From an uncultured Eubacteriales bacterium (GTDB taxonomy: Bacteria > Bacillota > Clostridia > Christensenellales > UBA1242): a DNA stretch of 64,000 nucleotides. Shown piece by piece: positions 6,372 through 38,316 of this stretch. Position 1 is the first letter of the stretch; the number at the start of each line of letters is the position of its first letter. Made by a program: the position numbers and the translations under genes. The notes below the pieces were generated by a model that worked only from the letters and a program-made list of their open reading frames with translations, did not search any database and was not told the origin of the DNA. The stretch covers positions 2,522-66,521 of the forward strand of contig CAPERS010000001.1 of the NCBI GenBank assembly GCA_948607205.1, written 5' to 3'.

Positions 6372-6377
6372 TTGGTT

Positions 6378-6406
6378 ATTATATATAATATGAAAAGAAA
6401 AGTCAA
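6378..6406 (-). promoter_or_regulatory. sigma-A type promoter of the str operon
   Basis: Minus strand TTGACT (6401-6406), 17 nt spacer, TATAAT (6378-6383). Confidence 0.6.
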
Positions 6407-6550
6407 GGATTTTTAATAACTTTTCTTTATTATTTTTAGCATTATTTTATCCAATTTAATTTAACAAAAAAAAGCTAAATTTGAAATAAAAAATAAAAAA
6501 CTATCTTTAAAACAAAAAATCACTGATTTTTCAGTGTCTTTTAGTTATTT

Positions 6551-6880
6551 TTAAATTTCATTAGATTCATCTTCGTCTTCATCATCAGAATAATTAAACT
6601 TTTCGCGTCCTATTCTTTTCAAAATTTTCATAGCTTTGTCACAATCTTTATCTGATTTTTGAATATGTTTGTTCATCCAAATCATTGCACCGGTTGCCAC
6701 CAAGCCAAGTCCGCTCAATGCACAAGTGAAAATTGTTAAAGCTTTATCTTTCAAAACGCCTGCGCTTATTCCCACCAAAATAAAACCGCTTAAAGTTGTT
6801 AAAGAAAAAGCATTTCTAAAACCTTTTGCAAGTTTCAAATGATTTTTATTTTCTTCTTTCAATTCCTTTATATTGTTCAT
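6551..6880 (-). CDS. small membrane protein (two predicted TM helices, acidic C-terminal tail)
   Basis: 109 aa. Hydrophobic segments FSLTTLSGFILVGISAGVL and IFTCALSGLGLVATGAMIW. C-terminus DDEDEDESNEI. Confidence 0.5.
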   Translation of the reverse strand: MNNIKELKEENKNHLKLAKGFRNAFSLTTLSGFILVGISAGVLKDKALTIFTCALSGLGLVATGAMIWMNKHIQKSDKDCDKAMKILKRIGREKFNYSDDEDEDESNEI

Positions 6881-15183: not shown

Positions 15184-16350
15184 ATGAAAAATAAAAAAAC
15201 TTTGAAAGCAAAAATTTCAGATATGGTCAAAACAATCAAGGCTTGGACATTGGTGACTTTCACAAGAGATAAAAGCCTTAACAATTTCACAAAAGCTGGT
15301 GTTGTTATCGGTCTTACAACAACTCCAATCGTTTTCGTTGCCTGCCTTCCAACTGAAAAACCAAATGATAACGAACAAAATTCAAGCGGTGACCAAATTC
15401 AAAGTGGTGACAAAAACCCAAGTGGCGACACAAATAAAGACCCAGAAAATCCATCAAATCCAGACAAACCAACTGACCCTACAAAACCAACTGAACCAGA
15501 AAAGCCAACCAATCCAACTGACCCAGAAAAACCAGCAATCCCTGGCGATGAGAACTATGACTACCCAACCACAATGGCAGAACTCGAAGCCTCACCAGAC
15601 AAAATCAAACTCCAACAACTCCTCACAAACTATATTGATGAGAATTTGAAGGAAATGATTGCAGGAATTGGATTTAACTTTTCTACACTTAAAAATACTA
15701 AAACAATTGCTTACGATATTGATGTTGAAAATAATAAAATTACAGGGTTTTTCAATACCGTTCGTGAAGAAAAAAATCATCAGTATTATATAACCGAAAG
15801 TTATATGAAAGAAGATACAAAAATAAATTTAGTAGAAATCTTGAAATATCAAGCACAAATTGATAATGACGAACTAGATGTTACCGCTCCAAAACCAGCA
15901 ATTCAAATCAATATCCCAAAAACAAAAAATTTATTTTCAATTGCAATAACAAAAAATCAAAATGAATTTCAACCTTATGCAAAAGATGTTCTTGAAAGTT
16001 TAACAGGTGAAAAACATGAAAATGCAGAATATTTTGCTGAAAACATGGGCTCAGCTCCTGCTTTTGGTAGCGGAAACCACCCTATTGTTAGAACAACAAA
16101 ATTATATAGAGAAGGTAATAAATTTACGATAAATTATATAACAATTATTGCAAAGGACTATAGTTCAATTGGAACAGAAAATGAAAAAGAGTATATTGAA
16201 AATAAGAAAGAAAAAATAACTTTTGGCACTGAAAACACATTTTATATTGAAGACATAAAAGAAAAAGAAGATGAAATTATAATGGTTTCAGTAGATAATA
16301 AGGAATACGCAATCATAAAAGACAATCAAACATATTTTATTGAACAGTAA
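15184..16350 (+). CDS. putative lipoprotein with Pro/Thr/Glu/Lys-rich linker, function unknown
   Basis: Hydrophobic segment ending IVFVAC (lipobox-like), then KPTDPTKPTEPEKPTNPTDPEKP low-complexity linker. 388 aa. Confidence 0.6.
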   Translation: MKNKKTLKAKISDMVKTIKAWTLVTFTRDKSLNNFTKAGVVIGLTTTPIVFVACLPTEKPNDNEQNSSGDQIQSGDKNPSGDTNKDPENPSNPDKPTDPTKPTEPEKPTNPTDPEKPAIPGDENYDYPTTMAELEASPDKIKLQQLLTNYIDENLKEMIAGIGFNFSTLKNTKTIAYDIDVENNKITGFFNTVREEKNHQYYITESYMKEDTKINLVEILKYQAQIDNDELDVTAPKPAIQINIPKTKNLFSIAITKNQNEFQPYAKDVLESLTGEKHENAEYFAENMGSAPAFGSGNHPIVRTTKLYREGNKFTINYITIIAKDYSSIGTENEKEYIENKKEKITFGTENTFYIEDIKEKEDEIIMVSVDNKEYAIIKDNQTYFIEQ

Positions 16351-16450: not shown

Positions 16451-18556
16451 ATGAGAAAGAAATTTGTCAAACTTTTCAGTTTTTTGATGATATTTTGTTT
16501 ATCATTCCTCTTTGTCGGTTGTTCTGGGCCGGGAGGAAGTTCTTTCGGTGATGACCTGTTTGAAAAACTTGAAAATGGTGAAATAACAGAAGATGAATTT
16601 GCTGACCAAATGAAAGAAAACCTTGACATCCCACTCTATGGCACAAAACTCCTCTACCGCAGTTCTTCTTCCAATATGGGCGATATGGGAACTGACTATC
16701 AAGATTATTATTCCAAATTTTCATTATGGCTTTCATATTATTTAATAGCCGAATATGGTTACTATAACTATGGTGCGTTTAACGGACAAAATGTAGTAGA
16801 CCCTGCCAAATTTATACTTGATGACTCTGAATATATTTATGACACAATTCGATATCAAATTTCTGATGTATCAAAGATTTCTAAAACTCAAAAATTTATT
16901 ATTGGAGATAACACCGCTCCAAAAGAAACTATTGATGACAAAGATTATACAACAAGTGTATCCACAAACATTAACAACAATTGGAATTGGAGTTTTGATA
17001 TAAATTCTGCCCCTATATCATATATCAACACAAACCTAGAAGTAGAGCAACCTCATGTTCAATTTATCAATCCAAATACAACTGAGATTTTTTACAATTA
17101 TAGAAACTACGATATTCCACAATTTAAAACAAATTATCCGGATTATTATAATAATAATCAAATACTCTATAATAACTACCTCACCCAAATGCTTATAAAT
17201 GAAGATACAAAATATATGACTGATGAGTATGGAAATGAAAAATTAAGAGAAGACATTTTTGAAAATAATATTGAAAAAGCTATAGATGATATAGCAAAAA
17301 ACAAACTCCAATCTGACATGGTCAAGGCAATTGAATATCTGTTATACTGCTATTCACTTAACTACAAGCCAAACGGAATCACTGTTGATGGGCAAACTGT
17401 CAAAATCTATGGTTATAACGAAGTTGATGATGCACTGGAATTTATCAAAGAACGTTTTGACAAGCATGGTGCATATATTGGTTTCTCAGAAGAAAACAAA
17501 ACACAACTTGTTCAAGATATTCTTAACATTGTGATTGGCGAGAATGCGCAAAAGACAAATGTTGTGGAAGAGAAAACTGACATGATTGCAAATATATACT
17601 TTGCTGACCAAACTGCCCTCGACGATAACAAACCTTCTTACATTGAACTTGTTGAAAGTGACACAACACAAACAACAAAAGTTGAAGTTATCCGAAAATA
17701 CAAAGACACAATCGCAAACATCATTGACATTGCCTACACTTACGTTTCAATCGGTGAAAACACTGAAACTGAGACGCGCGAAGGAAATTCGCTCAACATC
17801 AATCAGCGTTATCTCAACTCACAAATGCAAGACCTTTGGGGAAACAATTTCTTCCTCAGCATGAGATTTGACGGTGGCGACGAGTTTGACCCAAAATACA
17901 TTCCAGCGCGCGAATATCAAAGTGCCCTTCTCATGTTCAGCGAGGAGTTCAGTTTTGACAACATCTATGTTGCTGTGCGCTATGCTGGCAACAACAACTT
18001 AACTGAGGGCTATGATTTCAATCAATACATCGAACTTAACGTCAACCTAAATCTCTACATCAACGGAGAATGGAGGCGCTGGGGAAGCGAGCGGTTGAAA
18101 GTTCCTGCTGGTGAATTTGATGCAATGGAGTTTGAAATGCAAGAAGGGTTCTCGCAAGTTGCCAAATTCAGCGAGATTGAAACCAAGTATCGCGATGAAA
18201 AGTATTCCGACTGGGGATTTTCTGCCGAAGAAGGAATCAAGGTTGGCGCGTTCAAGCCACACGTTGGTGGCGGAATTTTAAGTCAAGGCATGAGTAACTA
18301 TTCAGGCAAAGTTCAGGTTGGAAAGCCAATTAAACTTCTCGGAACGACTGCTGTTAAGGACTATTTCAAGATTGTCGAGCCAGAAGAGAACGAACTTGAA
18401 GCCAATCAGTTCTATTCATCCGCAAGGTTTGCACACGAGAAAATGGTTGGGGCAAACTTATGCGACTATGTTGAGATAACCTACGATGTCATCAAGACAT
18501 CAGGCGATTTCAACACCAACTATTCCTTCCAAACAGGCATATACATGTTCATGTAA
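16451..18556 (+). CDS. large putative lipoprotein, function unknown
   Basis: MRKKFVKLFSFLMIFCLSFLFVGCSG is a signal peptide with an FVGC lipobox. 701 aa, Asn/Tyr/Asp-rich, no recognised domain. Confidence 0.7.
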   Translation: MRKKFVKLFSFLMIFCLSFLFVGCSGPGGSSFGDDLFEKLENGEITEDEFADQMKENLDIPLYGTKLLYRSSSSNMGDMGTDYQDYYSKFSLWLSYYLIAEYGYYNYGAFNGQNVVDPAKFILDDSEYIYDTIRYQISDVSKISKTQKFIIGDNTAPKETIDDKDYTTSVSTNINNNWNWSFDINSAPISYINTNLEVEQPHVQFINPNTTEIFYNYRNYDIPQFKTNYPDYYNNNQILYNNYLTQMLINEDTKYMTDEYGNEKLREDIFENNIEKAIDDIAKNKLQSDMVKAIEYLLYCYSLNYKPNGITVDGQTVKIYGYNEVDDALEFIKERFDKHGAYIGFSEENKTQLVQDILNIVIGENAQKTNVVEEKTDMIANIYFADQTALDDNKPSYIELVESDTTQTTKVEVIRKYKDTIANIIDIAYTYVSIGENTETETREGNSLNINQRYLNSQMQDLWGNNFFLSMRFDGGDEFDPKYIPAREYQSALLMFSEEFSFDNIYVAVRYAGNNNLTEGYDFNQYIELNVNLNLYINGEWRRWGSERLKVPAGEFDAMEFEMQEGFSQVAKFSEIETKYRDEKYSDWGFSAEEGIKVGAFKPHVGGGILSQGMSNYSGKVQVGKPIKLLGTTAVKDYFKIVEPEENELEANQFYSSARFAHEKMVGANLCDYVEITYDVIKTSGDFNTNYSFQTGIYMFM

Positions 18557-18611: not shown

Positions 18612-18645
18612 ACAAAAACCACGGAAAAATTCCGTGGTTTTTTAT
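18612..18645. terminator. bidirectional rho-independent terminator (left boundary of the phage-like island)
   Basis: AACCACGGA (18617-18625) / TCCGTGGTT (18631-18639) flanked by an A-run and a T-run. Confidence 0.7.
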
Positions 18646-18663: not shown

Positions 18664-18981
18664 TTACTCTTTTGTTTCTTCCTTTATATCTTCTTTTAAT
18701 TCCTCTTGCTCAATTTTTTCGTTCTCTGTTTTCTCATCAAGTTGTTCTTGGTCCTCACTTGTTTCGGTGTTGTCTGTTTTTGAATCCTCCTCTTTTTTTG
18801 GCATTGCAACCACTCCAAAAACAACGAGGATTCCGGCAAGTGCCATAACTATGTTTGACACAAGTTCTTCTTGAACAGAAAAACCAAAACATTTGCCAAT
18901 TGCATTGATAAGCACAACAAGAGCGCCTGCAAGTGCAGTCCAAAAGCCATATGAACGAATTTTATTCTTCATATCTCTCAC
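18664..18981 (-). CDS. phage holin-like membrane protein (phi LC3-type pattern) with long acidic tail
   Basis: KIRSYGFWTALAGALVVLINAIGKCFGF plus a second TM (IVMALAGILVVFGVVAM), then an E/D/K-rich tail. Distal end of the phage island. Confidence 0.55.
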   Translation of the reverse strand: MRDMKNKIRSYGFWTALAGALVVLINAIGKCFGFSVQEELVSNIVMALAGILVVFGVVAMPKKEEDSKTDNTETSEDQEQLDEKTENEKIEQEELKEDIKEETKE

Positions 18982-19189
18982 CCTCTTTTATATATTCTTT
19001 CAACTCACCCACCTCTTCTTTAACATCTTCGATAACTTTCAAATGCTCGGTGAGTTCGCCTATCGTTTTTTGATATTCCTTTTCACGTCTTGCACTATCT
19101 TTCAGTTGATAAAAAAACAAAAAGACAAAAAGCACTGCAAAAACGCCATAACTTATCACTATTTTGATAAGTTCATCCCAAAAGTTCAC
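18962..19189 (-). CDS. BhlA/UviB-family holin-like peptide
   Basis: 75 aa, GTG start. Single TM, with YGVFAVLFVFLFFYQLKDSARREKEYQ resembling the BhlA core, followed by a coiled acidic tail. Confidence 0.55.
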   Translation of the reverse strand: MNFWDELIKIVISYGVFAVLFVFLFFYQLKDSARREKEYQKTIGELTEHLKVIEDVKEEVGELKEYIKEGERYEE

Positions 19190-19301
19190 CTTTGTTTCCT
19201 TTAAATTTCTTCTCTTTCAAAAACTTTTCCATTTCAGCCTCCTCTATTTGCTGTTGAATTTTCTTTTCAAAACAAACATGTCCAAAATCGAAAACTATCA
19301 C

Positions 19302-20783
19302 TTAACTCTCCAAGTATTCAATTTGAAAACTGGTTATTTTTGCTTCGCCGTCGGCACAGATATTCAATTCAAAAACCTCGCCAAGCACGCTTGTTAAGAT
19401 TGTTTGAGGTTGACTTTTGCCAACAACTGAAATGCTTTTCTTTTGTCTTTCACTTGAGAAAGAAATTGTGCAGTCGTTTTCAGATATCAAATGAATTTTG
19501 TTTATCTTTTTAAGTTTTCCTGCTTTGCCAAAGTTTGTTTTAACGCTCCTCCACTCTTTTGGCAAACTTTCATCAAAAAGTTTTCCATTTTTTTCAATTT
19601 GTCCAATTTTGTTTTTGCTCTCATCATTAAAACACGCAACCAATTTGCTTTTAAGTGGATTATTTAAAACTGTGAGCGTGCGAACATCCATTCCGCGTGA
19701 AATTTCAACCTCGCCACTTGTTTGGTCGTAAACCAAAAGTGCATTATTGACAAAATCTTGATTGTTTTCACATCCGACTTTTTTGCCATCATCAAAGTTT
19801 AATCTGCATGCAAGATAATACTTTCCTTCAAAGCAAACGCCAGAAGAATGCTGGTTATCGTCACGCGTTAAAAGGTCATCACATTCAAGTGGCAAACTTT
19901 TTGTTGACGTGCCATTGAAAACCTTCAAGCCACTTCTTTCCAAGAAATATATTTTGTCACCTCCTGAAGCAATTGAACCCGGATAAATATATCCGTCCGC
20001 TTGATAAAGGTGACTTATTGAAAAGTCCTCTTTTGTGCTGTAAGTTGAAATTTTTGTTATGCCAAAATCGCGAAAAAGGTAAAGATAGTCATTGAAAGAT
20101 AGGATTTTGTTGAGATTTCCTCGCTCGTCGTTAAATTCAATGTGCTTAGTTTGTTCGTCATTCCATTCCAAAATATTGGTATTGTCCGTGTATACCAAAC
20201 TTCCTCTTGCACCTTTAGTTATTGCAAAAAGCTTATCATAATGAGTGCATATTGAAATAAGTTTTGGCGCAGACTCAACAGTGAAGTCAAAATTTGCACC
20301 AATAACTTTAAGCGGGCTTCCTTCGCCAGAAAAAACCATAACATCTTGCCCCTGATAACGATAAGGACAGCCTATCGGCGTGGAAGTGAAGTCGCAAGGG
20401 ATTGTCAAAGACAGCAATCTTTCACCAAAAAGATTGTCAAAATGAAAATTATCACTGCAGTTATAATACATCATATAATACTGATTGCTGTCATCAGTTT
20501 CATTATGCCATTTGAATGACCAAATGCTGGAAATGTTATCGCCGACCAATTCAACAACTTCTTCTTGTGCCAGGTTTTGTGGCGACTTTGGGCTTTTAAA
20601 CGCTGTGAAGCCATAGCCATTTTCAAGCCTGCCATTATTGATGCGAAAGTTATAGCAACGCTTGGCCTTTCTTCCGTTTTGAACAAAATCGTCTTTTTCA
20701 TCATTTGGACAATCTGCAAAAAGGTCATATATAAAAGTTTTTCTCTTTGTTTTAAGTGTGGGCACTTGATTTCTATAAAACAT
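19302..20783 (-). CDS. phage structural protein, repeat-rich (beta-propeller-like impression), in the position and size class of P22 gp10
   Basis: ATG at 20783 after AGGAGGAGG, overlapping the upstream stop as TGATG. 493 aa. Function inferred from gene order only. Confidence 0.5.
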   Translation of the reverse strand: MFYRNQVPTLKTKRKTFIYDLFADCPNDEKDDFVQNGRKAKRCYNFRINNGRLENGYGFTAFKSPKSPQNLAQEEVVELVGDNISSIWSFKWHNETDDSNQYYMMYYNCSDNFHFDNLFGERLLSLTIPCDFTSTPIGCPYRYQGQDVMVFSGEGSPLKVIGANFDFTVESAPKLISICTHYDKLFAITKGARGSLVYTDNTNILEWNDEQTKHIEFNDERGNLNKILSFNDYLYLFRDFGITKISTYSTKEDFSISHLYQADGYIYPGSIASGGDKIYFLERSGLKVFNGTSTKSLPLECDDLLTRDDNQHSSGVCFEGKYYLACRLNFDDGKKVGCENNQDFVNNALLVYDQTSGEVEISRGMDVRTLTVLNNPLKSKLVACFNDESKNKIGQIEKNGKLFDESLPKEWRSVKTNFGKAGKLKKINKIHLISENDCTISFSSERQKKSISVVGKSQPQTILTSVLGEVFELNICADGEAKITSFQIEYLES

Positions 20784-21319
20784 CACACCCACCTCCTCCT
20801 TGCAAGAATGGTTGAAGAATTTTTTCTCAATAAAACTTGAAGGCTGTTTTTGAATCTAACTTCAAAAATTTCAGCGTCTTCAAACATTCCTTCGCGCATA
20901 AGATATTCTCTTGCAACGCCATAAGCATAAACGCGTTCTGGCAAGTTGTCATAAATTTCATCTTCAAGGTTGACCTCTGCTGGCTGGTATGAATAAGTCA
21001 CTTTTGCTCTGTTAGCCTGAACCATGAGATAGTCTGGAAAAGCCCTGAATTTCAGTTTTCGACCAAATCTATCTTTGACCATATTGATTTTAAGTGGTTT
21101 GAACTTGAATGCTGAGAATGGCAATTTGAAATCTTTTATGTCAAGTTCTTCACTTTCAAGAACTGGCAAAAATTCACTTGCAACTTCGTTTCTGACAAGA
21201 TTGAAAATTTTTAAAAGTTTTGCAATCCTTTCGTCATCTGGCATTGTTTCAATAAGGTCTGCAATCTCCTCTTCTCCGATAAAACTGCAAGCGAGAGATA
21301 AAATATTTTTTACTTTCAT
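20783..21319 (-). CDS. putative head-tail connector/adaptor protein
   Basis: 178 aa, AGAGGAGG RBS, ATGA overlap with the upstream gene. The N-terminal acidic helix and C-terminal YAYGVAREYLMREGMFEDAEIFEVRFKNSL resemble gp6-like head-tail connector proteins. Position equals P22 gp4. Confidence 0.45.
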   Translation of the reverse strand: MKVKNILSLACSFIGEEEIADLIETMPDDERIAKLLKIFNLVRNEVASEFLPVLESEELDIKDFKLPFSAFKFKPLKINMVKDRFGRKLKFRAFPDYLMVQANRAKVTYSYQPAEVNLEDEIYDNLPERVYAYGVAREYLMREGMFEDAEIFEVRFKNSLQVLLRKNSSTILARRRWV

Positions 21320-21624
21320 GAAAGCGCCTCCTCTAATTTATTTACTTCCTCTTTCAAAACTTTTTTCATCATCATTTCATTTTCTTTGTCAAGTTCGGCG
21401 ATGATTTTGTCTTTATTTTCAACTCTGGTCCTCAAAGCGTGGTCAATCGTTCGGCAATCCAAAAGCTCAAACGGAACTGTGAAACAATAACTTGAGCCAC
21501 GCTGTTCACTGCTGTGAACTTCAAACTTTTGTGAATCTGTGTTGTATAAAACAAAATATGACCGGTCTATTTCTTTCAATCTTTCACAGATAAACAAGGC
21601 ATCAGTCAAAATTTTTAATTTCAT
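21316..21624 (-). CDS. phage hypothetical protein (102 aa)
   Basis: Start moved to the ATG at 21624 behind AGGAGGAG. Lies between the capsid and connector genes. Confidence 0.55.
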   Translation of the reverse strand: MKLKILTDALFICERLKEIDRSYFVLYNTDSQKFEVHSSEQRGSSYCFTVPFELLDCRTIDHALRTRVENKDKIIAELDKENEMMMKKVLKEEVNKLEEALS

Positions 21625-21707
21625 AAATCTCCTCCTAAATTGACAAAAAAGGCAAAAATTTGCTTCAAATAGCAAAAAATTTGCCTTTTTGTAATGAAAA
21701 AATTTTA

Positions 21708-22934
21708 TTAAGCGTTTTCAGAACCACTGTTTGAAACGTTTACAGTTGTTGAAAATGGATTTGTTACTGTTGATTTGATTCCGCTGATGAGCGCTTGTCC
21801 ACAAGGCTTATCGCAGATAAGTTCAGCATATTTAACAAGAGTTGCGCTGTAAGTTGGATAGTTTTGATTTTGTTTTAAAATGCGTCCATCTTCGCCTTCA
21901 AGCCATTTCCAGTCGCAAAGTTCATGAAGTGTGAAGTCATTTGTGTTTAAGAGATACATTTTGTCGTCATCAACAAATCTGTCAGCAACAACAGGAATGC
22001 CGTTGTGAGTGATTGTTTTGTATCCGCCTTCAAGTTCAGTGACATCAACGTTTCTTCTGTAAGCGCCAAGATATTCTTGATATGCTCTTCTAACTGCACT
22101 TGATGTTGCAATAAAGTTAATGTTTGAATCGTTATTCATATCAAGGAAGTCAATCGCTTGTTGGATAAGAATGTCAGAGATTTCAGTTGCAGTTGTGCTA
22201 ACATAAGGGTTAAGCCATTGATAGTCTGACTTTTTAACGCCATAAATCTCAGTTGCTGATGTGTCAAAAATTTTGCCAAGACCAGAAATTTCATAGCCTT
22301 TTGAACCTTGAACATAAAGTTTGTGTCCTTGTGCAATTGTTCCAGTGAAAAGTGATGCGTCAAAGTGGAAAGTTTTGTTCACTCTGTCAACATATGTGAT
22401 TTTAACAATTTGATTTGCGTTAACTTTTGTTTCACCATTATAGATGTCAACAAGCATACCTTCGATAAGGTTGTTAACTTTGTCGCAAACAACTTTGTTT
22501 CCGTCAACGGAAGCAACAGTTGCAAGAAGACCACTACCATCGCCATAAAGCATTCTTCCAAGGTTGAAAGCACTTGCCTTAACAAGACCTTCCATTTCGT
22601 CTGAAAGAAGGTTTACGAATGCACCAATATTGCTTGCAGATGCTCTTACTGATTTGTCAGAAAGTTCAATCTTGCCATAAAGGTTTTTGAGTTCTGCAAC
22701 AAATTGAACATATCCGTTTCCAGAAGATGCAGGAAGTTCGCCTGCTTCAGAACCTGCACCAATTCCGCCATTGATTCCGAAAGGTGCAAGTTTTCTTATT
22801 TCTTTGCCCCAAACATCTTTGCTTGATCGCTTTATCTTTGCCATGAGTGGATTTGCTTTAACATTAAGTTGATTTGCCACAACATCAAGATAAACATTCT
22901 TCAAAGCGTTTTCGGCTGTTTGTAATGTTACCAT
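21708..22934 (-). CDS. phage major capsid protein (HK97-fold family)
   Basis: 408 aa. RMLYGDGSGLL matches the conserved flxGDGsG motif of HK97-family capsid proteins. Follows the scaffold gene. TAGGAGAA RBS. Confidence 0.78.
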   Translation of the reverse strand: MVTLQTAENALKNVYLDVVANQLNVKANPLMAKIKRSSKDVWGKEIRKLAPFGINGGIGAGSEAGELPASSGNGYVQFVAELKNLYGKIELSDKSVRASASNIGAFVNLLSDEMEGLVKASAFNLGRMLYGDGSGLLATVASVDGNKVVCDKVNNLIEGMLVDIYNGETKVNANQIVKITYVDRVNKTFHFDASLFTGTIAQGHKLYVQGSKGYEISGLGKIFDTSATEIYGVKKSDYQWLNPYVSTTATEISDILIQQAIDFLDMNNDSNINFIATSSAVRRAYQEYLGAYRRNVDVTELEGGYKTITHNGIPVVADRFVDDDKMYLLNTNDFTLHELCDWKWLEGEDGRILKQNQNYPTYSATLVKYAELICDKPCGQALISGIKSTVTNPFSTTVNVSNSGSENA

Positions 22935-23107
22935 AATTTTCTCCTATTTTGTGCTTTAAGCACCTTTATTTTTGTTTAATTTTTTCTTTAGAAATGCAAC
23001 TATTGCACCTAAAGTCTTTTATTTTTTAATTATTTTTTTTCTTTTTTTTGGTGCTTTAAGCACCTTTATTTTTTAATTTGTTTTTTTCGATAGGCAATAA
23101 TTGCCCA
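22935..23107. repeat. 173-nt A/T-rich intergenic spacer with four short hairpins, including an exact 23-nt direct repeat 100 bp apart
   Basis: GTGCTTTAAGCACCTTTATTTTT at 22951-22973 and 23051-23073. Also TGCAA-CTA-TTGCA (about 23005-23017) and GGCAA-TAA-TTGCC (23093-23105). Confidence 0.85.
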
Positions 23108-23731
23108 CTAACTGAACATTTTGTTCACCAAAACCTTTGCTTCTTGCAGGGTTTTCGGAGCGTCAGGCATAACGCCCGACACTCTTTCCCCTCTTTGAGA
23201 AGAAATAACAATTGGTGGTTTTTGTTCTTTTAAAGTTTGCAAATAGTTCTCGATGATGACTTTTTTGATTTCGTCATCAGAAAGGACATATTTGTTTAAG
23301 ATTGGGTCGTTTGGCTTGATGTCAGACAAGTGATTTGTCACAACACTATTCCAAGCAACTTCGATTGGGTTTGGCAAAGTTTTTAAAGACTGGTCAGAAT
23401 TGACCTTTTCTTTGATTTCGTCAACAGCCCAAGACGCATCGGAATGCTCTGAAAGGAACTTATTTATTTCCACATCCAAATCAAGTTCAGTTTTTATTTC
23501 AGATGTGGAATTTTCAGTTTTATCTTTTTCAAGTTCGCTTATGCGTTGACATTTGCGAGTGAACTCTTTTTCAAGCGTGTTATATGCATCTAACAACGCT
23601 TTGGCAGATTTAAATTTGCCAAGTTCACTCATGTCTTTTTGAGAGCCGACCTCGCCACCGGCTCTTTCTTCAATCTCCGTGCCCACGGAATCTGCCTGCA
23701 TTATGGTCGGTTGTTCTCTGTTTTCTTCCAT
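23108..23731 (-). CDS. putative capsid scaffolding protein
   Basis: 207 aa, acidic and helical (ELEKDKTENSTSEIKTELDLDVEINKF), located between portal and capsid. AAGGAGG RBS. Confidence 0.6.
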   Translation of the reverse strand: MEENREQPTIMQADSVGTEIEERAGGEVGSQKDMSELGKFKSAKALLDAYNTLEKEFTRKCQRISELEKDKTENSTSEIKTELDLDVEINKFLSEHSDASWAVDEIKEKVNSDQSLKTLPNPIEVAWNSVVTNHLSDIKPNDPILNKYVLSDDEIKKVIIENYLQTLKEQKPPIVISSQRGERVSGVMPDAPKTLQEAKVLVNKMFS

Positions 23732-23733
23732 TA

Positions 23734-25614
23734 CTATACCTCCTTAGCCTTTTTATGCTCTCGCACATGGCTTAAAAATTTTTCTTCCAAGTTTTTATCT
23801 TTTGAAACTGCTTTTTCATAGTCATTTCCAAGCATAAATGCAATATGCTCATTGATATGAAGTTCGTGGTCATCAATCTCACTGATGGCAACGCTTTCGC
23901 CACCAAGAAGTCTGATGTTTTCATTGTCAGCCTTTTTGATGTGAAGTTCGTTGAGGTCTTGCGCATTTTCCCAGACGCCCAGTCCAAGACTTTCGAGAAC
24001 TTTATATTTCATTCGCTTTGACAATTTGCCATTTTCATCGCTAAGCACACCAGAGTTTAACAATGCAAACACCATTTCTCTTTTTTGAGTGAGGGTTTGA
24101 GTTGAATCATTCATTGTTTCAATTTCAACATCGTCACTTGAAATGTCATTTGAATTGAAATAGAAAAGTTCAATCTGACCATTATCGCCAGCAATACGTG
24201 CAATTCTTGGGAAAAGTGCATATTGTTTATATAACCTCAAAATTCTTTTTGAAATTTCTTTATAGCATGACTTAATGCTTTCAATGGTTGAATTAAGCCT
24301 TATTTCATCTTGACCAATCAAAAGTTCAAGCGTGACACCTGAAAGGTTTGATGAAACATATTCTGAGCCCAAAGTTTCGCTTATGCCACCAATTTTATAA
24401 AACTCTTCATTCAGTCTTTTCTCTTCTTCATTGAAATCTGCCGGAAGTGTTTGAGTTTGAAGATACTTTGGTTCGCTTGAACCCTGTCTATAAACCAAAA
24501 CCTTGCCTGGACACAAACCTTCATCTTCAAGATTATCAAGGTCAACTGAACCATCTTCAACTGAAAGCACTCCCAGTGAAAGCCTGTTGATGAACTCATG
24601 CTTGCGATTTTTTACCGCGTTATATGCACGCTGAACAGGAATGATTCTTTCAATCACGCTTGCTCCCCAGAAACATGCAGGCTGTTCAATGCTGATTTGC
24701 TTGACAAAAGGCAGGTCGCGCTTGCCATCTTCACCACAGAAATATGGGAGCGAGCCATCATAGACAACTCTTTTTCCGGCAATAATTATCAATCTGCCTT
24801 CTGGAAAATCTTTGTTTGGTCTTATGTATTTCTCAATCACGAGCGCACTGTCTTCTCTCACACTTTCAATAACCTTAGTTGCCATGCCATTGAATCCAAG
24901 ACCTGCCATGCCTGCTGTCACACTGTCAAGTGCGAATGTGTTCAAACGTTCACTTTCAACTTCGATGCCATACATATCTTTTATTTCAGCAAGAGTGTAT
25001 GCTCTGGCATGGATTATGCTTTGGCAATCATCAATTGTTTCGCACGTGTTTGAATCGGGATAAATTTCAAAAGGACTGCAAACTGAAATGTCAATTTCGC
25101 CACCACGAATTTCAAGTCCGTCTTCATCCAAACCAACAAGTTGTCCGGCATTTGGATTCCAGTTGACTTTATAGAAACTTGTTCCACAGACTTCACTCCA
25201 CTTTATTGCTTGGTTTATCTTTGCAGGAAGGCCAAGTTTGTTTCCAACTGAATTTAAAATCTTGTTTGAAATCTTTGCTGTTTGCTTGTCGCGCTCATCA
25301 TTCGTTGCTGGCAAAACATGAACCTGTTGTTTTATTTTTGATAACTTTGCAAAACGAATATCAAATATCGGTGCAATATGGTTAAAAACTTCTCTCTCCT
25401 GCCAAAAAAACTGTTTGTCTGTTTCTTCAACCAGTCCGCCATATCCAACATCGCAATATTGATTTCCCATAAGATAGTTCATATTTAATTGCCAAATTGT
25501 GTCAAAACTGCGTCTTGCATCGGCACGAGCATGAAAATCTCTCATAACCTCTTCAACGATTTTTCTGTTTTCTTTGCTGTCTTCTCTTTTTGCTTTAATG
25601 TTTTCTCTTATCAT
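23734..25614 (-). CDS. phage portal protein
   Basis: 626 aa. N-terminal RRSFDTIWQLNMNYLMGNQY resembles the W..n..fy.G.Q motif of portal proteins. Size and position upstream of scaffold and capsid fit. Confidence 0.75.
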   Translation of the reverse strand: MIRENIKAKREDSKENRKIVEEVMRDFHARADARRSFDTIWQLNMNYLMGNQYCDVGYGGLVEETDKQFFWQEREVFNHIAPIFDIRFAKLSKIKQQVHVLPATNDERDKQTAKISNKILNSVGNKLGLPAKINQAIKWSEVCGTSFYKVNWNPNAGQLVGLDEDGLEIRGGEIDISVCSPFEIYPDSNTCETIDDCQSIIHARAYTLAEIKDMYGIEVESERLNTFALDSVTAGMAGLGFNGMATKVIESVREDSALVIEKYIRPNKDFPEGRLIIIAGKRVVYDGSLPYFCGEDGKRDLPFVKQISIEQPACFWGASVIERIIPVQRAYNAVKNRKHEFINRLSLGVLSVEDGSVDLDNLEDEGLCPGKVLVYRQGSSEPKYLQTQTLPADFNEEEKRLNEEFYKIGGISETLGSEYVSSNLSGVTLELLIGQDEIRLNSTIESIKSCYKEISKRILRLYKQYALFPRIARIAGDNGQIELFYFNSNDISSDDVEIETMNDSTQTLTQKREMVFALLNSGVLSDENGKLSKRMKYKVLESLGLGVWENAQDLNELHIKKADNENIRLLGGESVAISEIDDHELHINEHIAFMLGNDYEKAVSKDKNLEEKFLSHVREHKKAKEV

Positions 25615-25829
25615 TTTTCTCTCCTCAACTTTTGTTTGGTTTTAAATGGGCTTTCAATACCCTTTGGTGTTTGCAATTTTGCAATTGACTCATACATTCC
25701 TTTCATGCAACTATCACAAAAAGACAGGTCACGCCTTATAATTCCCTTTGTTGAAAAGGAATACTTTGCCAAATTGTTGCAACCATAAAAGTCACACTTG
25801 GTCAAATATTTGCATTCTCTAATTTCCAC
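25611..25829 (-). CDS. small Cys-rich (zinc-ribbon-like) phage protein, 72 aa
   Basis: GTG at 25829 behind AAGGAGGAAGAAG. CKYLTKCDFYGC...FCDSC. ATGA overlap with the portal start. Occupies the slot where a large terminase is expected. Confidence 0.45.
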   Translation of the reverse strand: MEIRECKYLTKCDFYGCNNLAKYSFSTKGIIRRDLSFCDSCMKGMYESIAKLQTPKGIESPFKTKQKLRREK

Positions 25830-26106
25830 CTTCTTCCTCCTTAATAGTTTGTAAAAGTCGCTCTTTTTCCTTTTCAAGTTCTTGGTCAGACATGCCAGCA
25901 AGTTCATCAACGTAGGTTTTATAATACTTTTCAAAAAGGACCTTGATTGCCGAAATGTCAGGGCTGAAATGTTTTTTTGTCACCTTTTTCTTAATAAGTT
26001 TTGTCGACCCATCGTCGTCAGTGGCATATTCTTCAACAACTTCGTCAGCCGAATAACCCAACGCTTTTTTAAGAAGCGCTTTTCGAATTCTTTCTTCCTC
26101 CTCCAT
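25819..26106 (-). CDS. small phage protein, possibly terminase small-subunit-like
   Basis: 95 aa, first gene of the module. ALLKKALGYSADE and KKHFSPDISAIKVLFEKYY loosely resemble small-terminase segments. Weak. Confidence 0.3.
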   Translation of the reverse strand: MEEEERIRKALLKKALGYSADEVVEEYATDDDGSTKLIKKKVTKKHFSPDISAIKVLFEKYYKTYVDELAGMSDQELEKEKERLLQTIKEEEGGN

Positions 26107-26252
26107 AAACTTAAAAACTCCTGCTTTGCAACTTTTGACAATATATTAACCCACAAAAAACGCCAAAACAAGTTTGACTGCCATTTTTTTTGAAAAGTTT
26201 GCACACAAAATGAAAAGCAAACTAAACTGATATTGTAGAGGTCAAAAAAACA

Positions 26253-29215: not shown

Positions 29216-30050
29216 TTACTTTCTCTCATCTTCTTCTTCAAGTTTTGCTAGGTTTTCTGCAATTCGCGCGAGTCTGTTTTTCGCCTCAATGAAAAACTCC
29301 AATGGGGTTATATGTTGATAACTTTCTTTATAAACCGACTCACTTGTTATATCGCCTTGATAGCAAGAATCTTTTAAGTCACAAATCAATTTGCCCCAAT
29401 CAATATTGCCATCATATGGCAACAAGTGTTGGTCAGCAGTTCCGTCATTATCGTGCAAATGCACACATGCAATCTTGTTTTTGAATTTGTCAAAATTAAA
29501 AGAATCTTTAAAATAAACGTGATTATGACCACTATCTAGACAAACTTTCAAATTCGGACTTTTGATATGGTCGCAAATAAACTCAATATACCCTGGCCAA
29601 ACAGTGTTTTCAAGTGCAACCTCAATTCCAAGTTTTTCCGCATGGTCAAGAAGTTTTCTCATTCTCGCGATTGCTATATCTGACATTGGCGATTGACGAT
29701 TGCTTTTGGTGATGTGCATACACACCATCTTTATTCCGTCTGATGCAACAATGTCAAGGTCTTTGATATAGTCATTTATAAGCTCGTCACCTGCTTCGCC
29801 CTCTTCCCAAAGCGTTGCAATGCCTTGATTAACACGATAAACCTAGATGAACAAAAGAAACTTCCAAGTTGTTTTCTCGGATTAGGTTTAGATACTTTCG
29901 ATACCCCACACCACTCAGATGTTCATTTTGAAAAGACATAAAAACTTTTTTAAAACCCGCCTCAGCGATAAGTTTGACACTTTCCTCATTTGAAAAGCCG
30001 TGATTCATTGGTTTTTCTTCGCACCTTACGCCTATTGCTAAATCTCTCAA
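29216..30050 (-). pseudogene. xylose-isomerase-like TIM-barrel (sugar phosphate isomerase/epimerase or AP endonuclease 2 family) gene interrupted by a frameshift
   Basis: The N-terminal fragment (29829..30050) and C-terminal fragment share one family (EVALENTVWPGY, CLDSGHNHV, VHLHDNDG). The C-terminal frame stays open upstream to about 29845. Total span is 835 nt, which is 3n+1. Confidence 0.55.
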
Positions 30051-34397: not shown

Positions 34398-36179
34398 TTA
34401 AAGCATTTTTTCTTTACTTTCCGCATTCTGATAAAGCGTGCGATAAAAATCATTATTTTCAAGAAGTTCTTCATGCTTGCCTTGACCGATAATTTTGCCT
34501 TTGTCAAGCAGGTATATGCAGTCTGCATACGTTATGGTTGAAAGCCTGTGTGCAATCAAAATGATTGTCACTTTGTTTTTAAGTTTTTCAATCACTTTCA
34601 TGATTTCTTTTTGAGAAGAATTGTCAAGAGCGCTTGTTGCCTCATCAAAAATCATTATTTTAACATCACGTGCAAGCGCTCTTGCAATGCAAATCTTCTG
34701 CCTCTGCCCACCAGAAAACTGACAGCCATTTTCACCGATAATACTATCAAGACCGAGTGGTAACTTTTTCACATGATTCAAAATGTCAGTTTGCTTGCAA
34801 AGTTCATATATTTCTTCGTCAGTGATATCAGGCTTAATCAACTTAAAATTATCACGAATTGAAATATTAAAGATATATGGGAACTGATTGACAACTGCAA
34901 TATTTTCTTTAACAAACTCTTTGCTAAGCTCTTCAATCGGCACATCATCAAAAAGAATTTGGCCTGAATTTTTGTAATATAAATGTGCAATGAGGCTGAT
35001 GATTGTTGACTTTCCGCACCCACTTTCTCCAACAAAAGCAACTGTCTGCTTTGGCAAAATTTCAAAACTTGCATTCTTTAAAACTTTCTTATCTTTACCA
35101 TAATTGAAAGTAACATTTTTAAAGGTGATTTTTCCTGAAAAATTTTCAATAGTTTTATCGCCATAATAATCTTCTTCATAGATGCTTGGGTCGGCTATTT
35201 TAAAAATTCGCATTGCATGGACTTCGGCTGTTCCAATATTGATTTGAAGGTCACCAAAAATCTGTGCAAAGTCAAGCATATGGTCTTTATACAAAAAGCA
35301 GGTGTAGAAAATTAGTGGCGTCAAACTTTCCATGCGAAGAAAATACACGCAAAGGAAGATGAAAAAGAAATTGCACACGAACTGAATAATTTTTGAAATT
35401 TCAACAAGAGTTATTCCGACATACCACTCGTGATTGTCTTTTTTAACAAAATCTCTTTGGTCTTTTTCTATTGTTTGAAGAGTTGAATCAGTGCAATTGA
35501 GTGTTTTGATATCTTTAACTCCTCGAATAATTTCAATAATTTTCGAATTGACCTTTTCAATTGAACGTCTAACATCTGGTTTTAGTTTAGTTAAATAATG
35601 AACGCGAACTGAATAAGCAATTATTGTGAGTAAAATAGTTCCAACCAAAAATAGTCCAAGATAATAGTTTAAGAAGAAAATGTAAATCACATATGCAAAC
35701 TTGCTTATAAGATTAACAACTTTGGTTGTGAACGCTTGAAATTCTTTTGAAATGTGGTCAATATCAGATGTCAGGCGAGTGACAATAACGCCACTGCCCA
35801 TAACGTCATAACTTTTCATTTGAATGTCGAGTGATTTTCTTAAGATATACTGCTGAATGTCAATTTTTGAGCGGTTTTCTACTTGCTTATAGAAATATGT
35901 GTTAAGAATTGATAAAAGAGCGCTGAAAGTGGTTATACCAAGCGAAATTCCAGCATTGATAAGCGCGCCTTTAAAATCACCGCTTTCCATAATGCATGCG
36001 ATTGTCTTTGCAATAAACATTGCATCAAAAAAGCTTATGCATGCTTTGATCAAAAGCACAATAACATACAACCCAAGAAAGACCCAGTGCTTTTTATAAA
36101 ACTTTAAAAGCGTTCTGAGCCCGATATACTTTTTTTCTTTCTTCTTTCCGAACTTTTGCTTTTGTGAAACTATTTCCAT
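34398..36179 (-). CDS. ABC exporter, fused permease-ATPase half transporter (MsbA/multidrug type)
   Basis: 593 aa with six N-terminal TM helices. GESGCGKST Walker A, FSGGQRQKICIARAL signature, MIFDEATSALD Walker B. Confidence 0.9.
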   Translation of the reverse strand: MEIVSQKQKFGKKKEKKYIGLRTLLKFYKKHWVFLGLYVIVLLIKACISFFDAMFIAKTIACIMESGDFKGALINAGISLGITTFSALLSILNTYFYKQVENRSKIDIQQYILRKSLDIQMKSYDVMGSGVIVTRLTSDIDHISKEFQAFTTKVVNLISKFAYVIYIFFLNYYLGLFLVGTILLTIIAYSVRVHYLTKLKPDVRRSIEKVNSKIIEIIRGVKDIKTLNCTDSTLQTIEKDQRDFVKKDNHEWYVGITLVEISKIIQFVCNFFFIFLCVYFLRMESLTPLIFYTCFLYKDHMLDFAQIFGDLQINIGTAEVHAMRIFKIADPSIYEEDYYGDKTIENFSGKITFKNVTFNYGKDKKVLKNASFEILPKQTVAFVGESGCGKSTIISLIAHLYYKNSGQILFDDVPIEELSKEFVKENIAVVNQFPYIFNISIRDNFKLIKPDITDEEIYELCKQTDILNHVKKLPLGLDSIIGENGCQFSGGQRQKICIARALARDVKIMIFDEATSALDNSSQKEIMKVIEKLKNKVTIILIAHRLSTITYADCIYLLDKGKIIGQGKHEELLENNDFYRTLYQNAESKEKML

Positions 36180-36346
36180 TTTTTCCTCTTTGTTATATAT
36201 TTTTCCTTTGCGCTCGGAAGTTTCAAGTTTTGGCAGTTAAGCCAAAACTTGACCAACAAATTTCGAATGCAATTTGTTGGAGCGGAAAGCGCGACGGTCG
36301 CAAGCGAAACCGCTTGCACCTTGCACTTTCCGCCGCTTCCGAGCTC
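36180..36346 (-). promoter_or_regulatory. GC-rich, highly structured 5' leader (candidate cis-regulatory RNA of unknown class) of the ABC exporter
   Basis: Closing helix GCTCGGAAG (36336-36344) / CTTCCGAGC (36212-36220) encloses three hairpins: a long imperfect GC-rich one (36281-36335), a 10-bp one (36253-36280) and an 11-bp one (36224-36251). Confidence 0.4.
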
Positions 36347-36352
36347 ACACAT

Positions 36353-36381
36353 ATTCTACCAAATCCCCCCCCCCGCGTCAA
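36353..36381 (-). promoter_or_regulatory. near-consensus sigma-A promoter with extended -10, spacer built from a G10 tract
   Basis: Minus strand TTGACG (36376-36381), 17-nt spacer CGGGGGGGGGGATTTGG, TAGAAT (36353-36358) with a TGn upstream. Confidence 0.6.
36365..36374. repeat. C10/G10 homopolymeric tract
   Basis: Ten consecutive C on the plus strand, read directly. The only long G/C homopolymer I noticed in this AT-rich window. Confidence 0.95.
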
Positions 36382-36400
36382 GTGAAAACCTATGAAATTT

Positions 36401-38227
36401 TTATTTTTCAACTTCAAAACTCCAATCAATATCTTTTTCATAAAATCCATTATCAAACAATTCTTTATAGAACTTAATTTTCTTAACATCACTTTTTTTA
36501 ATTGCCATTCGTTTGGCATGATTAAGAAAACAGCATAACATCACAAATTTAATTTGTCCGTCAAGGCGCTTAGGAAGCTTTTCTCCATAAACACCTTGTA
36601 AATAACCTTTTAAAAATCCTTTATTTATAGGTGTAGTATTAGAAAAGAATTTGTCTGAGATATTGTATCTGAAATTCACAATTTCGTAACCAATGCAATA
36701 ACTCTCATTGTCGGCTATGTAAAAATCTTCACCTGTTTTTGATAAGACGTTAGCAAACTTTAAATCTGCATGAGTCAAATGCATAGGTTCATCTTTAAAA
36801 TGCTTTTTAAATTTATTAAGAAGTTTTATAATTTCTTTTTTATCGCAAGGAATTTGATTTTTAATATTGCTTGAATATGCTATCTCGATATTTTCATAAT
36901 TTTTCTTCATAATATCTTCAATAGTAACAATATGGTAAAGACTTTCATCTTTCAATTCCCAAATTGGTTTAAAAGCTTCCGCAACTTTTATTCCACATTT
37001 CACGCCACTTTCAAAATCGTTTTCATCAAAAAATTTATCCCATTCTTTGCCGTCAATAAATTCAAATAGAACAAACATTTTTTCACAAGATGCTTTTCCA
37101 CTGCAATATATTTTTGGAGTTGGAATTTTTGATTTTGCGAGAATATTATATTTTTTTAAACGTAAGCCTAGTTTTTCTTCACTTCCTTCCATAATTTTAA
37201 GAAAATATTTTTTATGTCCTTTTGTGCATTTAAAAACTAAATTATGGTCGTCATAACTTCCGTCAACGACTTCAAACTTTGCACCTTTTATAAGCCTGCA
37301 AACGTTTGGTTTAAAATTAATTAACCTCTCAGTTATATCAACTTGTCCATTTTTTACATATTTTTCAATGATTTCAATATATTTTTCTGCTTTTTCAAAG
37401 TTATCTTTTTCTATATACTTTTTAATTTCTCTAAAAGCCATCATTGCAAACATGCAATTAATTGCACTTAGAACTCGCTCTGGAACATTGAACTGAAAAT
37501 ATCCTTCCATGTATCCACTTGAAAAAGATAGATACTTTTCAATTAAATCCGCATCACCTGAAACCAGTCCCCATCTTAAAGCGGTTGAAAATTCAAAATG
37601 TTTAATTTGTTCAAAATCAACTGCAACAAGTTTGTTTTCATTTGTTATCATAAAATTTTTAGGCTTTATATCTGTGCAACCAAAGCACATCAAACTGTTT
37701 TTGATGTCTGATAAATTGTTTTCAAAATAATCTTTCAAATCAAGAAAAGTTTTTTTACTTTTTGAAGTGAGTTTATCAAGACCTTTGCACCTTTCGTCAA
37801 ATTCTCTTTCAACTCTTTCATGCTTTTCATTAAAAATTTCAAGAGCTTTTTTATCAACTTTTTTATCTTTAAAGTCCTTTCTGAAATTGCTATATTTCTC
37901 GCCAAGCTTGAATCCATATTCATATATACCCTTTGTTGATTTTACAAAAAATTGGTCGAATAAATCTTTTCCCTCAACAAATTCTTCAATGATAAAACTA
38001 AACCCATCAAGATTTTGTCCAACCTCAATGACTTTTGCGTGAGGAATTGAATAGCTTGTTAAAAACTCTTCAATATCACTTCTGATATTGCTATCTTTAA
38101 TTTTTATAAAATATCTTTTGCCGTCTTTTGTGAAAAAGTATTTTTTAGCAGAAGAATACCCTCCTGTGCACTCTTCAAAATCAGTCGCACCTTCGAGAAA
38201 ATGTATTCCTTCAAAATCTTTCATCAT
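36401..38227 (-). CDS. tandem double kinase-like protein (two APH/choline-kinase-type phosphotransferase domains)
   Basis: 608 aa. Domain 1 catalytic loop CTDIKPKNFMI...VAVDFEQ. Domain 2 LTHADLKFANVL...IADNES. Each domain starts with a K(K/R)YF(I/L)KI lysine strand. Confidence 0.65.
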   Translation of the reverse strand: MMKDFEGIHFLEGATDFEECTGGYSSAKKYFFTKDGKRYFIKIKDSNIRSDIEEFLTSYSIPHAKVIEVGQNLDGFSFIIEEFVEGKDLFDQFFVKSTKGIYEYGFKLGEKYSNFRKDFKDKKVDKKALEIFNEKHERVEREFDERCKGLDKLTSKSKKTFLDLKDYFENNLSDIKNSLMCFGCTDIKPKNFMITNENKLVAVDFEQIKHFEFSTALRWGLVSGDADLIEKYLSFSSGYMEGYFQFNVPERVLSAINCMFAMMAFREIKKYIEKDNFEKAEKYIEIIEKYVKNGQVDITERLINFKPNVCRLIKGAKFEVVDGSYDDHNLVFKCTKGHKKYFLKIMEGSEEKLGLRLKKYNILAKSKIPTPKIYCSGKASCEKMFVLFEFIDGKEWDKFFDENDFESGVKCGIKVAEAFKPIWELKDESLYHIVTIEDIMKKNYENIEIAYSSNIKNQIPCDKKEIIKLLNKFKKHFKDEPMHLTHADLKFANVLSKTGEDFYIADNESYCIGYEIVNFRYNISDKFFSNTTPINKGFLKGYLQGVYGEKLPKRLDGQIKFVMLCCFLNHAKRMAIKKSDVKKIKFYKELFDNGFYEKDIDWSFEVEK

Positions 38228-38316
38228 TTGCCTCCAAAATTTCTGTAATCATTATATCATGTCAAGAAGCAATCTACTATTATAAATTTCTTATAATAAT
38301 ATAAAAAAAACTTATA

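Follow-up and report, generated by a model that had tools for sequence, protein, structure and literature searches.

The 64,000 nucleotides of DNA analysed here (the window) come from an uncultured Eubacteriales bacterium of the Christensenellales (GenBank assembly GCA_948607205.1, contig CAPERS010000001.1, positions 2,522 to 66,521, forward strand) and carry a 7.4-kb operon of phage head genes. It is close to certain that this module is a locus of a domesticated podovirus-derived particle system. We put the probability at about 0.65 that it is one locus of a split, podovirus-derived system resembling a gene transfer agent (GTA), in which the large terminase subunit, TerL, acts in trans. A first-pass annotation of the window had left three readings: a recent deletion derivative, a helper-dependent satellite, and a domesticated capsid or GTA-like module with its packaging functions encoded elsewhere. 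The last of these is now supported by a TerL that is contiguous with the head genes in relatives and by complementary loci that carry TerL only, one of which co-occurs with a head-only genome.

GTAs have been characterised in few lineages. A report of 2026 described the first podovirus-like GTA, which was also the first in a commensal of the human gut. The Christensenellales are gut bacteria that are widespread, heritable, associated with health and difficult to culture. If the reading proposed here is true, a conserved particle-forming system would be a candidate route of gene flow in the Christensenellales, and there would be a concrete gene set to compare with the unexplained packaging of Christensenellales DNA in faecal virus-like particle (VLP) fractions. 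A literature search found no published description of this head cluster.

The head operon encodes a predicted podovirus head, neck and nozzle

The operon consists of ten intact, tightly packed and co-directional open reading frames (ORFs) on the minus strand, between positions 18664 and 26106 (Table 1). The first-pass annotation had listed all ten as open, and so they are; the ATGA and TGATG junctions and the 2-nt gap that it described follow from the ORF coordinates. Its portal call holds, as the 626-aa protein scores 66.7 bits against PF16510 (cutoff 26.1) and matches phrog_156 at 1e-32, and a profile built from the orthologues matches the portal of phage GP4 (8jov_0) at 3.9e-6. The call of an HK97-type podovirus capsid is likewise borne out for the major capsid protein (MCP), which matches NCBIfam NF033394 at 2.4e-78 (263 bits, cutoff 80) and phrog_14242 at 1.3e-51. 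The HK97 fold itself is taken from the family assignment, since no structure was predicted. Direct phmmer searches of the Protein Data Bank (PDB) with the portal and the MCP gave no match, and a profile of the MCP gave insignificant matches only. The whole module had no blastn match among 50,697 phage records.

The 493-aa protein has no sequence family match. An AlphaFold2 model based on an alignment of 56 homologues has a predicted local distance difference test score (pLDDT) of 85.4 and a predicted template modelling score of 0.87, and it consists of a beta-propeller and a beta-sandwich. Among PDB structures, Foldseek ranks the Pa223 tail protein 9nwi_Y at the top (1.2e-20, TM 0.71), followed by tail proteins of VP1, GP4 and SU10 and by T7 gp12; a chain of the P22 tail complex (9jg6_a, 470 residues) matches at 2.7e-11, and matches in BFVD include proteins annotated 'P22 Gp10'. 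On its predicted structure the protein is a tail nozzle of the P22 gp10 / T7 gp12 fold, in agreement with the gp10 position that it had been given.

The remaining genes are assigned with varying support. The TerS-like protein is short and matches only an internal part of TerS profiles; among 38 orthologues, phrog_309 is matched by 35 and phrog_23444 by 16. The four cysteines of the 72-aa protein are invariant in 26 orthologues. No family match in Pfam or PHROG was obtained for either the 207-aa or the 102-aa protein; the slot between portal and MCP is filled by the 207-aa gene in every locus. The 178-aa gene is found in every locus that reaches its position, and the product is 171-192 aa long in nearly all of them. 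Scans of 36 orthologues gave no match to PDB profiles or PHROG, and an AlphaFold2 model made from two sequences was poor (pLDDT 47). By position, this protein is a putative gp4-type head-to-tail adaptor. The two holin genes proposed at first pass were recovered by their Pfam families.

The operon is inherited vertically and kept by selection

For this organism's own genome the evidence is the 64-kb window, and the rest comes from relatives. A scan of a species-representative genome collection gave 282 stretches that encode a relative, and 80 of these loci were fetched; all 80 are metagenome-assembled genomes (MAGs) labelled Clostridia, Christensenella, Christensenellales, Catabacter or similar. 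MCP homologues number 5924, and the best 120 of them are 76-100% identical to the MCP of the window, many on contigs of 100-370 kb.

All 80 fetched loci have the ten genes in identical order, as far as each contig reaches, and the ORFs are intact and of near-constant length with two possible exceptions. These are the MCP ORF of locus L083 (303 aa, 5850-6761) and the portal ORF of locus L040 (552 aa), the only possibly damaged copies seen, which could be pseudogenes or errors of MAG assembly. The module adjoins the same ABC transporter genes in 48 distinct loci, and those among them that reach far enough have comEC-holA-der-plsY-spoIVA on the holin side. No complete prophage was found at this site in the relatives that were checked. 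In pairwise comparisons, MCP and portal diverge in step with the ABC genes beside them (Mantel r = 0.90, a value reached by 0 of 2000 permutations).

Ratios of nonsynonymous to synonymous substitution rates (dN/dS) range from 0.04 to 0.43 over all ten genes and from 0.05 to 0.30 in the flanking genes, with values of 0.04-0.29 against the two closest relatives and medians of 0.16-0.36 over many pairs, next to which the flanking genes give 0.09-0.30; these are rough upper estimates, because dS is near saturation. Single genes give about 0.15 (TerS-like), 0.04-0.07 (72 aa, against the closest relatives), 0.25 (207 aa) and 0.10 (MCP). Identity is 65-90% for the capsid protein, compared with 32-61% for the neighbouring comEC. 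Taken together, these comparisons of sequence indicate that the head operon is vertically inherited and kept by purifying selection.

The terminase of relatives lies upstream of the head genes

More distant relatives have three extra genes upstream of the TerS-like gene, which encode a sigma-like regulator, an SH3b membrane protein and TerL. The regulator gives faint matches to Sigma70_r4 and DUF1492. The SH3b gene is in the opposite orientation; its SH3b-like repeats were read from the sequence, and it has no Pfam match. TerL is intact, matches PF03237 and PF17289, has conserved Walker A and B motifs and a mean column identity of 77%, and has 5167 homologues at about 70% identity, which is about as many as the capsid has. 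Of the 59 metagenome loci whose length allows a judgement, 53 carry TerL and the head genes in one contiguous cluster and 6 carry TerL without them. In the contiguous loci the TerS-like gene, the portal and the rest come after TerL within 0.3-4 kb. In some clusters a large surface protein (b8xx) separates TerL from the TerS-like gene, and the head operon there has its own promoter.

It had been suggested that the 72-aa ribbon protein occupies the slot vacated by TerL. The relatives with TerL carry that gene upstream of the TerS-like gene and still have the 72-aa gene between TerS-like gene and portal, so the 72-aa gene is not a filler of a deleted TerL slot. Gene order across the relatives indicates that the cluster of the window lineage is cut just upstream of the TerS-like gene.

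The large protein of 794-1126 aa that follows TerL has homologous copies in TerL-only clusters and in those that contain b8xx (L185 13836-16220, L063 3351-5852 and L176 11504-14884). The copy in L185 carries a signal peptide as well as a membrane anchor at its C terminus, and the L063 copy has weak matches to M26_N and InlB repeats. Many relatives also have a DUF7934 (PF25588) gene between the nozzle and the holins (for example at 13774-14664 in L063), a family of which no mention was found in the literature searched.

A TerL-only locus accompanies a head-only genome

One of the TerL-only loci, a chromosomal one whose TerL is called P0207 here, reads valS ... lexA ... sigma-like gene, SH3b protein, TerL, leucine-rich repeat (LRR) protein, b794 ... 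lepA, and it holds no head genes. The complementary type is represented by the head-only MAG BRZ_CF__bin29 (locus L013), whose MCP is exactly the protein P0019 and is 82% identical to the MCP of the window. P0207 and P0019 occur on different contigs in at least three, and probably four, common samples. In ERZ28614392 they are on scaffold_111 (154,682 bp) and scaffold_212 (107,744 bp), respectively, and in ERZ28614065 on scaffold_1067 and scaffold_4262. The contigs have coverages of 4.41 (P0207) and 4.69 (P0019) in BRZ_FL. In BRZ_CF the P0207 contig, which is also at NCBI, has a coverage of 10.58, and L013's own contig is assigned to this sample by its name, BRZ_CF__NODE_2177, in which the coverage label breaks off after 'cov_1'. 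GC content is also similar (30-32% versus 33.5%). To judge by their scaffold positions in ERZ28614392, the two loci would be at least tens of kb apart.

Co-occurrence, coverage and GC content in this relative are strong circumstantial evidence that head-only genomes keep TerL elsewhere. Another head-only MAG, BRZ_BE__bin67 (L078), was considered as the partner of P0207, as the two share a sample and have similar coverage, and was ruled out by its GC content (45% versus 30%). A comparison of the protein accessions of MCP and TerL in annotated MAGs gave no genome common to both.

A shared promoter motif may link the two loci

One upstream architecture is common to 59 distinct head-operon loci. 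It consists of an A/T-rich tract, TGGCAGT, N5, TTGAAA, N17-18, TATAAT, a GCAAAAGTTGC leader and a ribosome-binding site (RBS). The motif is enriched ahead of the sigma-like gene (30 of 46 distinct regions) and of the TerS-like gene (59 of 137). It is found upstream of TerL in 5/99, of the portal in 1/144, of the MCP in 0/131, of the nozzle in 1/111 and of the BhlA holin in 1/83. The background rate is 0.014 per 290 nt. TGGCA-N-TTG could be taken for a sigma-54 element, a reading that was rejected because its spacing exceeds the sigma-54 spacing by 1-2 bases and the TTGA element is followed by a well-placed TATAAT. To judge by its layout, the motif resembles a promoter for a housekeeping sigma factor next to an operator or activator site. 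We infer that the head and TerL loci are co-regulated, possibly through the sigma-like protein, which would act on its own promoter.

A proposed mechanism and its alternatives

The system probably derives from a P22/GP4-like podovirus and would encode the head, neck and nozzle of a small particle together with two holins. The presumed ancestral layout, still the commonest, is a single cluster of about 11-12 kb in the order sigma-like regulator, SH3b protein (opposite strand), TerL, TerS-like, Cys4, portal, scaffold, MCP, 102-aa, 178-aa, nozzle, sometimes DUF7934, and holins. In the window lineage the cluster would have been severed above the TerS-like gene, with the head operon between the ABC transporter and comEC and the regulator-TerL part at a distant locus. 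A common regulator, possibly the sigma-like protein, would activate both loci through TGGCA-N6-8-TTGA...TATAAT promoters. Procapsids would be built from portal, scaffold and MCP and filled by a headful mechanism that would use the short TerS-like protein and a TerL acting in trans. Closure of the portal would fall to the nozzle and the 178-aa protein, and the two holins would release the particles with the help of host autolysins. The outcome would be a GTA-like particle that contains host DNA.

Several points weigh against this GTA-like reading. The 64 kb covered of this genome gave no TerL, and the TerL link is one of co-occurrence, coverage and GC content in a relative with an 82%-identical MCP, not of one assembled chromosome. 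The role of the 178-aa protein as an adaptor is putative. The LRR and b794 proteins beside TerL look like cell-surface proteins and not like parts of a virion, because they have signal peptides and membrane anchors. DUF7934 is missing from both loci of the head-only type, and no tail fibre, receptor-binding protein, needle or endolysin was identified in either locus or anywhere else. The near-saturation of dS makes the selection estimates rough. Finally, particle production, DNA content and transfer are predicted from the genes of the module.

The main rival is a domesticated particle without DNA transfer, which may hold undelivered DNA as PBSX does, form DNA-free capsids, or serve as a lysis or killing device, while the unlinked TerL would be irrelevant or part of defective packaging. 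The missing fibre, receptor-binding protein, needle and endolysin would fit such a particle, as would the loss of DUF7934 from the head-only type and the position of the holins within the operon; delivery is also unproven for the GTA of Faecalibacterium prausnitzii (FpGTA), and PBSX acts as a tailocin (PMC12946183). However, a portal, a TerS-like protein, a nozzle and a conserved, intact TerL under purifying selection are hard to explain without DNA packaging, and packaged host DNA of Christensenellales has been seen in VLP fractions (PMC12946183). We consider this rival rather unlikely, although it is the one to be taken seriously.

The readings of a decaying remnant and of a mobile satellite are both excluded in our judgement. 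A helper-dependent satellite, similar to a capsid-forming phage-inducible chromosomal island (PICI), would have head genes of its own and depend on a helper for terminase and tail. Such an element would explain a head-only locus without TerL and tail, and nine related IMG/VR contigs are flagged as viral. It is nevertheless very improbable, as no integrase, att site, replication or excision genes were found in the 64-kb window, and the module has a fixed syntenic position in many species and co-diverges with its flanks. The IMG/VR contigs that reach above TerL (L089 and L091) have the chromosomal sigma-like-TerL-head layout with no replication module, and from established phage structure a podovirus portal-nozzle neck would be unable to dock on siphovirus or myovirus tails. 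The chance of a recent deletion derivative or a neutrally evolving prophage remnant is close to nil. Most phage functions are indeed missing, but the ten genes are intact and of near-constant length in 80 species-level loci, with dN/dS well below 1 (0.04-0.4) and co-divergence with the flanks. The identity of the MCP is far above that of the flanking comEC, and the Mantel result argues against recent horizontal copies of one element. A split GTA-like system with TerL in trans is thus the reading that we prefer.

Features of the locus and its surroundings

The 5' leader element of the window is found in most loci at this site, in the form GCAAA(A/G)GTTGC. Two copies of a 37-nt unit lie at 22937-22973 and 23037-23073, inside the 173-nt gap between the scaffold and capsid genes, and each contains a hairpin; the units may stabilise or process the transcript in favour of capsid expression. 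Against the nearest relative the capsid gene has a dS of 0.65, a value that is similar only in the scaffold and holin_1 genes and at least 1.0 in the others. Codon bias of the capsid gene is suggested, because its dS is lower than that of most neighbours.

Table 1. Positions of the head operon genes and associated non-coding elements in the window, from the promoter to the terminator
Feature	Position	Strand	Detail
Head-operon promoter	26140..26183	-	TGGCAGT 26183-26177; -35-like TTGTTT 26171-26166; 17-nt spacer; -10-like TAATAT 26148-26143
Conserved 5' leader element GTCAAAAGTTGCAAAG, between -10 box and RBS	26124..26139	-	
TerS-like protein, 95 aa	25819..26106	-	phrog_309 at 2.7e-6
Cys4 zinc-ribbon protein, 72 aa	25611..25829	-	Four-Cys pattern; GTG start at 25829, stop at 25611
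P22-type portal, 626 aa	23734..25614	-	PF16510 P22_portal, 2e-18
Putative scaffolding protein, 207 aa	23108..23731	-	Position only
Scaffold-MCP intergenic region, two copies of a 37-nt unit	22937..23073	-	GGTGCTTAAAGCACC hairpin in each copy
Major capsid protein (MCP), podovirus family, 408 aa	21708..22934	-	NF033394 capsid_maj_Podo
102-aa protein	21316..21624	-	Intact in nearly all loci
178-aa protein, P22 gp4 (head-to-tail adaptor) position	20783..21319	-	Position only
Tail nozzle/hub protein (predicted), 493 aa	19302..20783	-	AlphaFold2 and Foldseek
BhlA-family holin, 75 aa	18962..19189	-	PF10960 at 2e-17; phrog_2429 at 3e-15
Phage_holin_1-family holin, ~105 aa	18664..18981	-	PF04531 24.1 bits, cutoff 22; phrog_297 at 1.2e-11
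Bidirectional intrinsic terminator closing the operon	18614..18642	.	13-bp stem, T runs on both strands

The boundaries given at first pass stand: the operon is closed by the terminator and preceded by an ABC ATPase gene that starts at 26253. Among the large ORFs scanned, the rest of the window is housekeeping (comEC, holA, ligA, pcrA, ileS, topA, dprA, comM and the ABC transporter). The earlier statement that TerL, tail, lysin, integrase and replication genes are missing was confirmed for the 64-kb window, where tblastn with the TerL of a relative found none and the ORFs scanned include no integrase, replication gene, tail fibre or lysin. The window has no tRNA, and no att-like repeats flank the module.

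Two lipoprotein genes with a lipobox cysteine, at 15184-16350 and 16451-18556 on the plus strand, lie between the holins and comEC and match no Pfam or PHROG family. The first contains a Pro/Thr-rich 9-nt tandem repeat (15439-15538). The second has homologues in the same slot of many relatives, in either orientation, where other relatives have a DUF285 gene or nothing. These genes were considered as tail or receptor-binding protein genes and rejected on the grounds of their lipoboxes and opposite strand, their absence or replacement in many relatives, and the lack of relationship to the TerL-adjacent proteins.

Further along the window, a 170-aa ORF at 29216-29728 on the minus strand aligns with no more than positions 104-233 of the AP_endonuc_2 profile (xylose isomerase-like TIM barrel, 249 positions), and may be a truncated gene. 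At about 36000-39000 a 608-aa gene that weakly matches APH phosphotransferase (36401-38227) lies, with its neighbours, in a stretch where the GC content drops to 29-30% from about 37% in the rest; this patch may have been acquired horizontally. A bacterial large signal recognition particle RNA (RF01854, 170 bits) at 43709-43975 on the plus strand is the sole Rfam match in the window.

The wider family

Loci with a GC content of 56-64% (L150, L153, L169, L172, L149, L157, L118, L131 and L171) carry TerL, a TerS-like gene, portal, MCP and a homologue of the 178-aa gene on contigs of up to 160 kb, and some of them have a weak nozzle match. The presence of the cluster on these contigs extends the family well past the low-GC Christensenellales. 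Perhaps the high-GC copies belong to Oscillospirales. In Gemmiger, GTA-like packaging has been seen and an FpGTA homologue was not found (PMC12946183). A version with eight genes is located between murJ and ispG/rimP/nusA at 10001-18045 of L180 (GCA_017399945.1, 302-kb contig); it comprises TerL, 116 aa, portal, 144 aa, MCP, 189 aa, 414 aa and DUF7934, with no holins and no sigma-like gene.

Nine IMG/VR contigs that carry the module are catalogued as viral (L087-L095). As the two that extend beyond TerL, L089 and L091, have a chromosomal layout and lack replication genes, these are probably misclassified chromosomal fragments. Downstream of its nozzle gene L091 carries a further three genes, with products of 340, 485 and 282 aa. 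Virus-detection pipelines call these loci viral or prophage, which inflates prophage counts in the clade.

Comparison with known systems

With the P22, GP4 and VP1 podoviruses the element has in common the portal family, the nozzle fold, the order portal-scaffold-MCP-x-adaptor slot-nozzle, and no head maturation protease. It differs from them in having no needle, ejection proteins, tailspike or fibre, lysin, or replication and lysogeny genes, and in TerL, which precedes the TerS-like gene in relatives and is absent from the locus in the window. Capsid-forming PICIs differ from the module, which has no integrase, att, replication or helper-sensing genes and whose distribution is fixed and syntenic, not patchy.

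PBSX of Bacillus subtilis forms one contiguous element of myovirus type, with a full contractile tail and a terminase of its own. RcGTA of the Alphaproteobacteria is siphovirus-like with a long tail and has TerL inside its head cluster, and it is, like the element described here, a vertically inherited phage-derived cluster under purifying selection with lysis-dependent release. The present element is podovirus-like, is found in Bacillota and has an unlinked TerL. RcGTA also has accessory loci elsewhere and a TerS said to be without a DNA-binding domain, and PBSX is similar in being a domesticated phage-like element of a Gram-positive host that packages host DNA and depends on holins for release (PMC12946183).

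The closest parallel is FpGTA, which its authors called the first podovirus-like GTA (PMC12946183, Nat Commun 2026). Its operon I (10.5 kb, ten genes) includes TerS, TerL, portal, a Prp-like gene and MCP, and operon II, about 125 kb away, has the fibre, receptor-binding protein, holin and endolysin genes; the particles measure about 40 nm, seem to have no tail and contain about 9 kb of DNA (PMC12946183). The same work describes two whole Christensenellales MAGs packaged in a GTA-like way, HGM11616 with read peaks at 4.1 and 7.1 kb and QANA01 with a peak at 6.3 kb, and assigned no gene cluster to them (PMC12946183). The head operon of the window measures 7.4 kb on its own. The module in the window is an obvious candidate for this packaging. 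Capsid-gene transcription in a Christensenellales single-cell genome has also been reported, in a cockroach-gut study.

Both FpGTA and the present module are chromosomal elements of gut Clostridia with about ten genes that are near-ubiquitous in the host clade. Both have a short TerS, a portal, a gene in the scaffold slot, an MCP and short-tail podovirus-type proteins; both are without replication and integration genes and imply holin-mediated lysis, and the split of functions over two loci about 100 kb apart would be common to both. However, the MCP of FpGTA is annotated as N4-gp56 family, whereas the MCP here belongs to NF033394 and has no N4-gp56 match. In FpGTA, TerS, TerL and portal are together and the fibre, receptor-binding protein, holin and endolysin genes are in the second locus, whereas here the holins are with the head genes, TerL and the regulator are unlinked, and the relatives have TerL, then the TerS-like gene, then the portal. 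Particles, DNA content and proteome have been shown for FpGTA, and the module here is known from its genes. Set apart by the annotation of its MCP and by the gene order around TerL, the module does not appear to be an FpGTA orthologue.

To our knowledge no GTA is known in which the packaging ATPase and the regulator are unlinked from TerS and portal, and an architecture with both apart from the TerS-like, portal and head genes is unusual. It is tentatively proposed, at slightly worse than even odds, that the module is the genetic basis of the GTA-like whole-genome packaging of DNA seen in gut Christensenellales. It would then belong to a large podovirus-derived GTA-like family (GC content 29-64%) across the gut Clostridia that was domesticated independently of FpGTA, and in the window lineage it would form two unlinked loci, tied by a dedicated promoter and a sigma-like regulator, with the packaging ATPase apart from TerS and portal.

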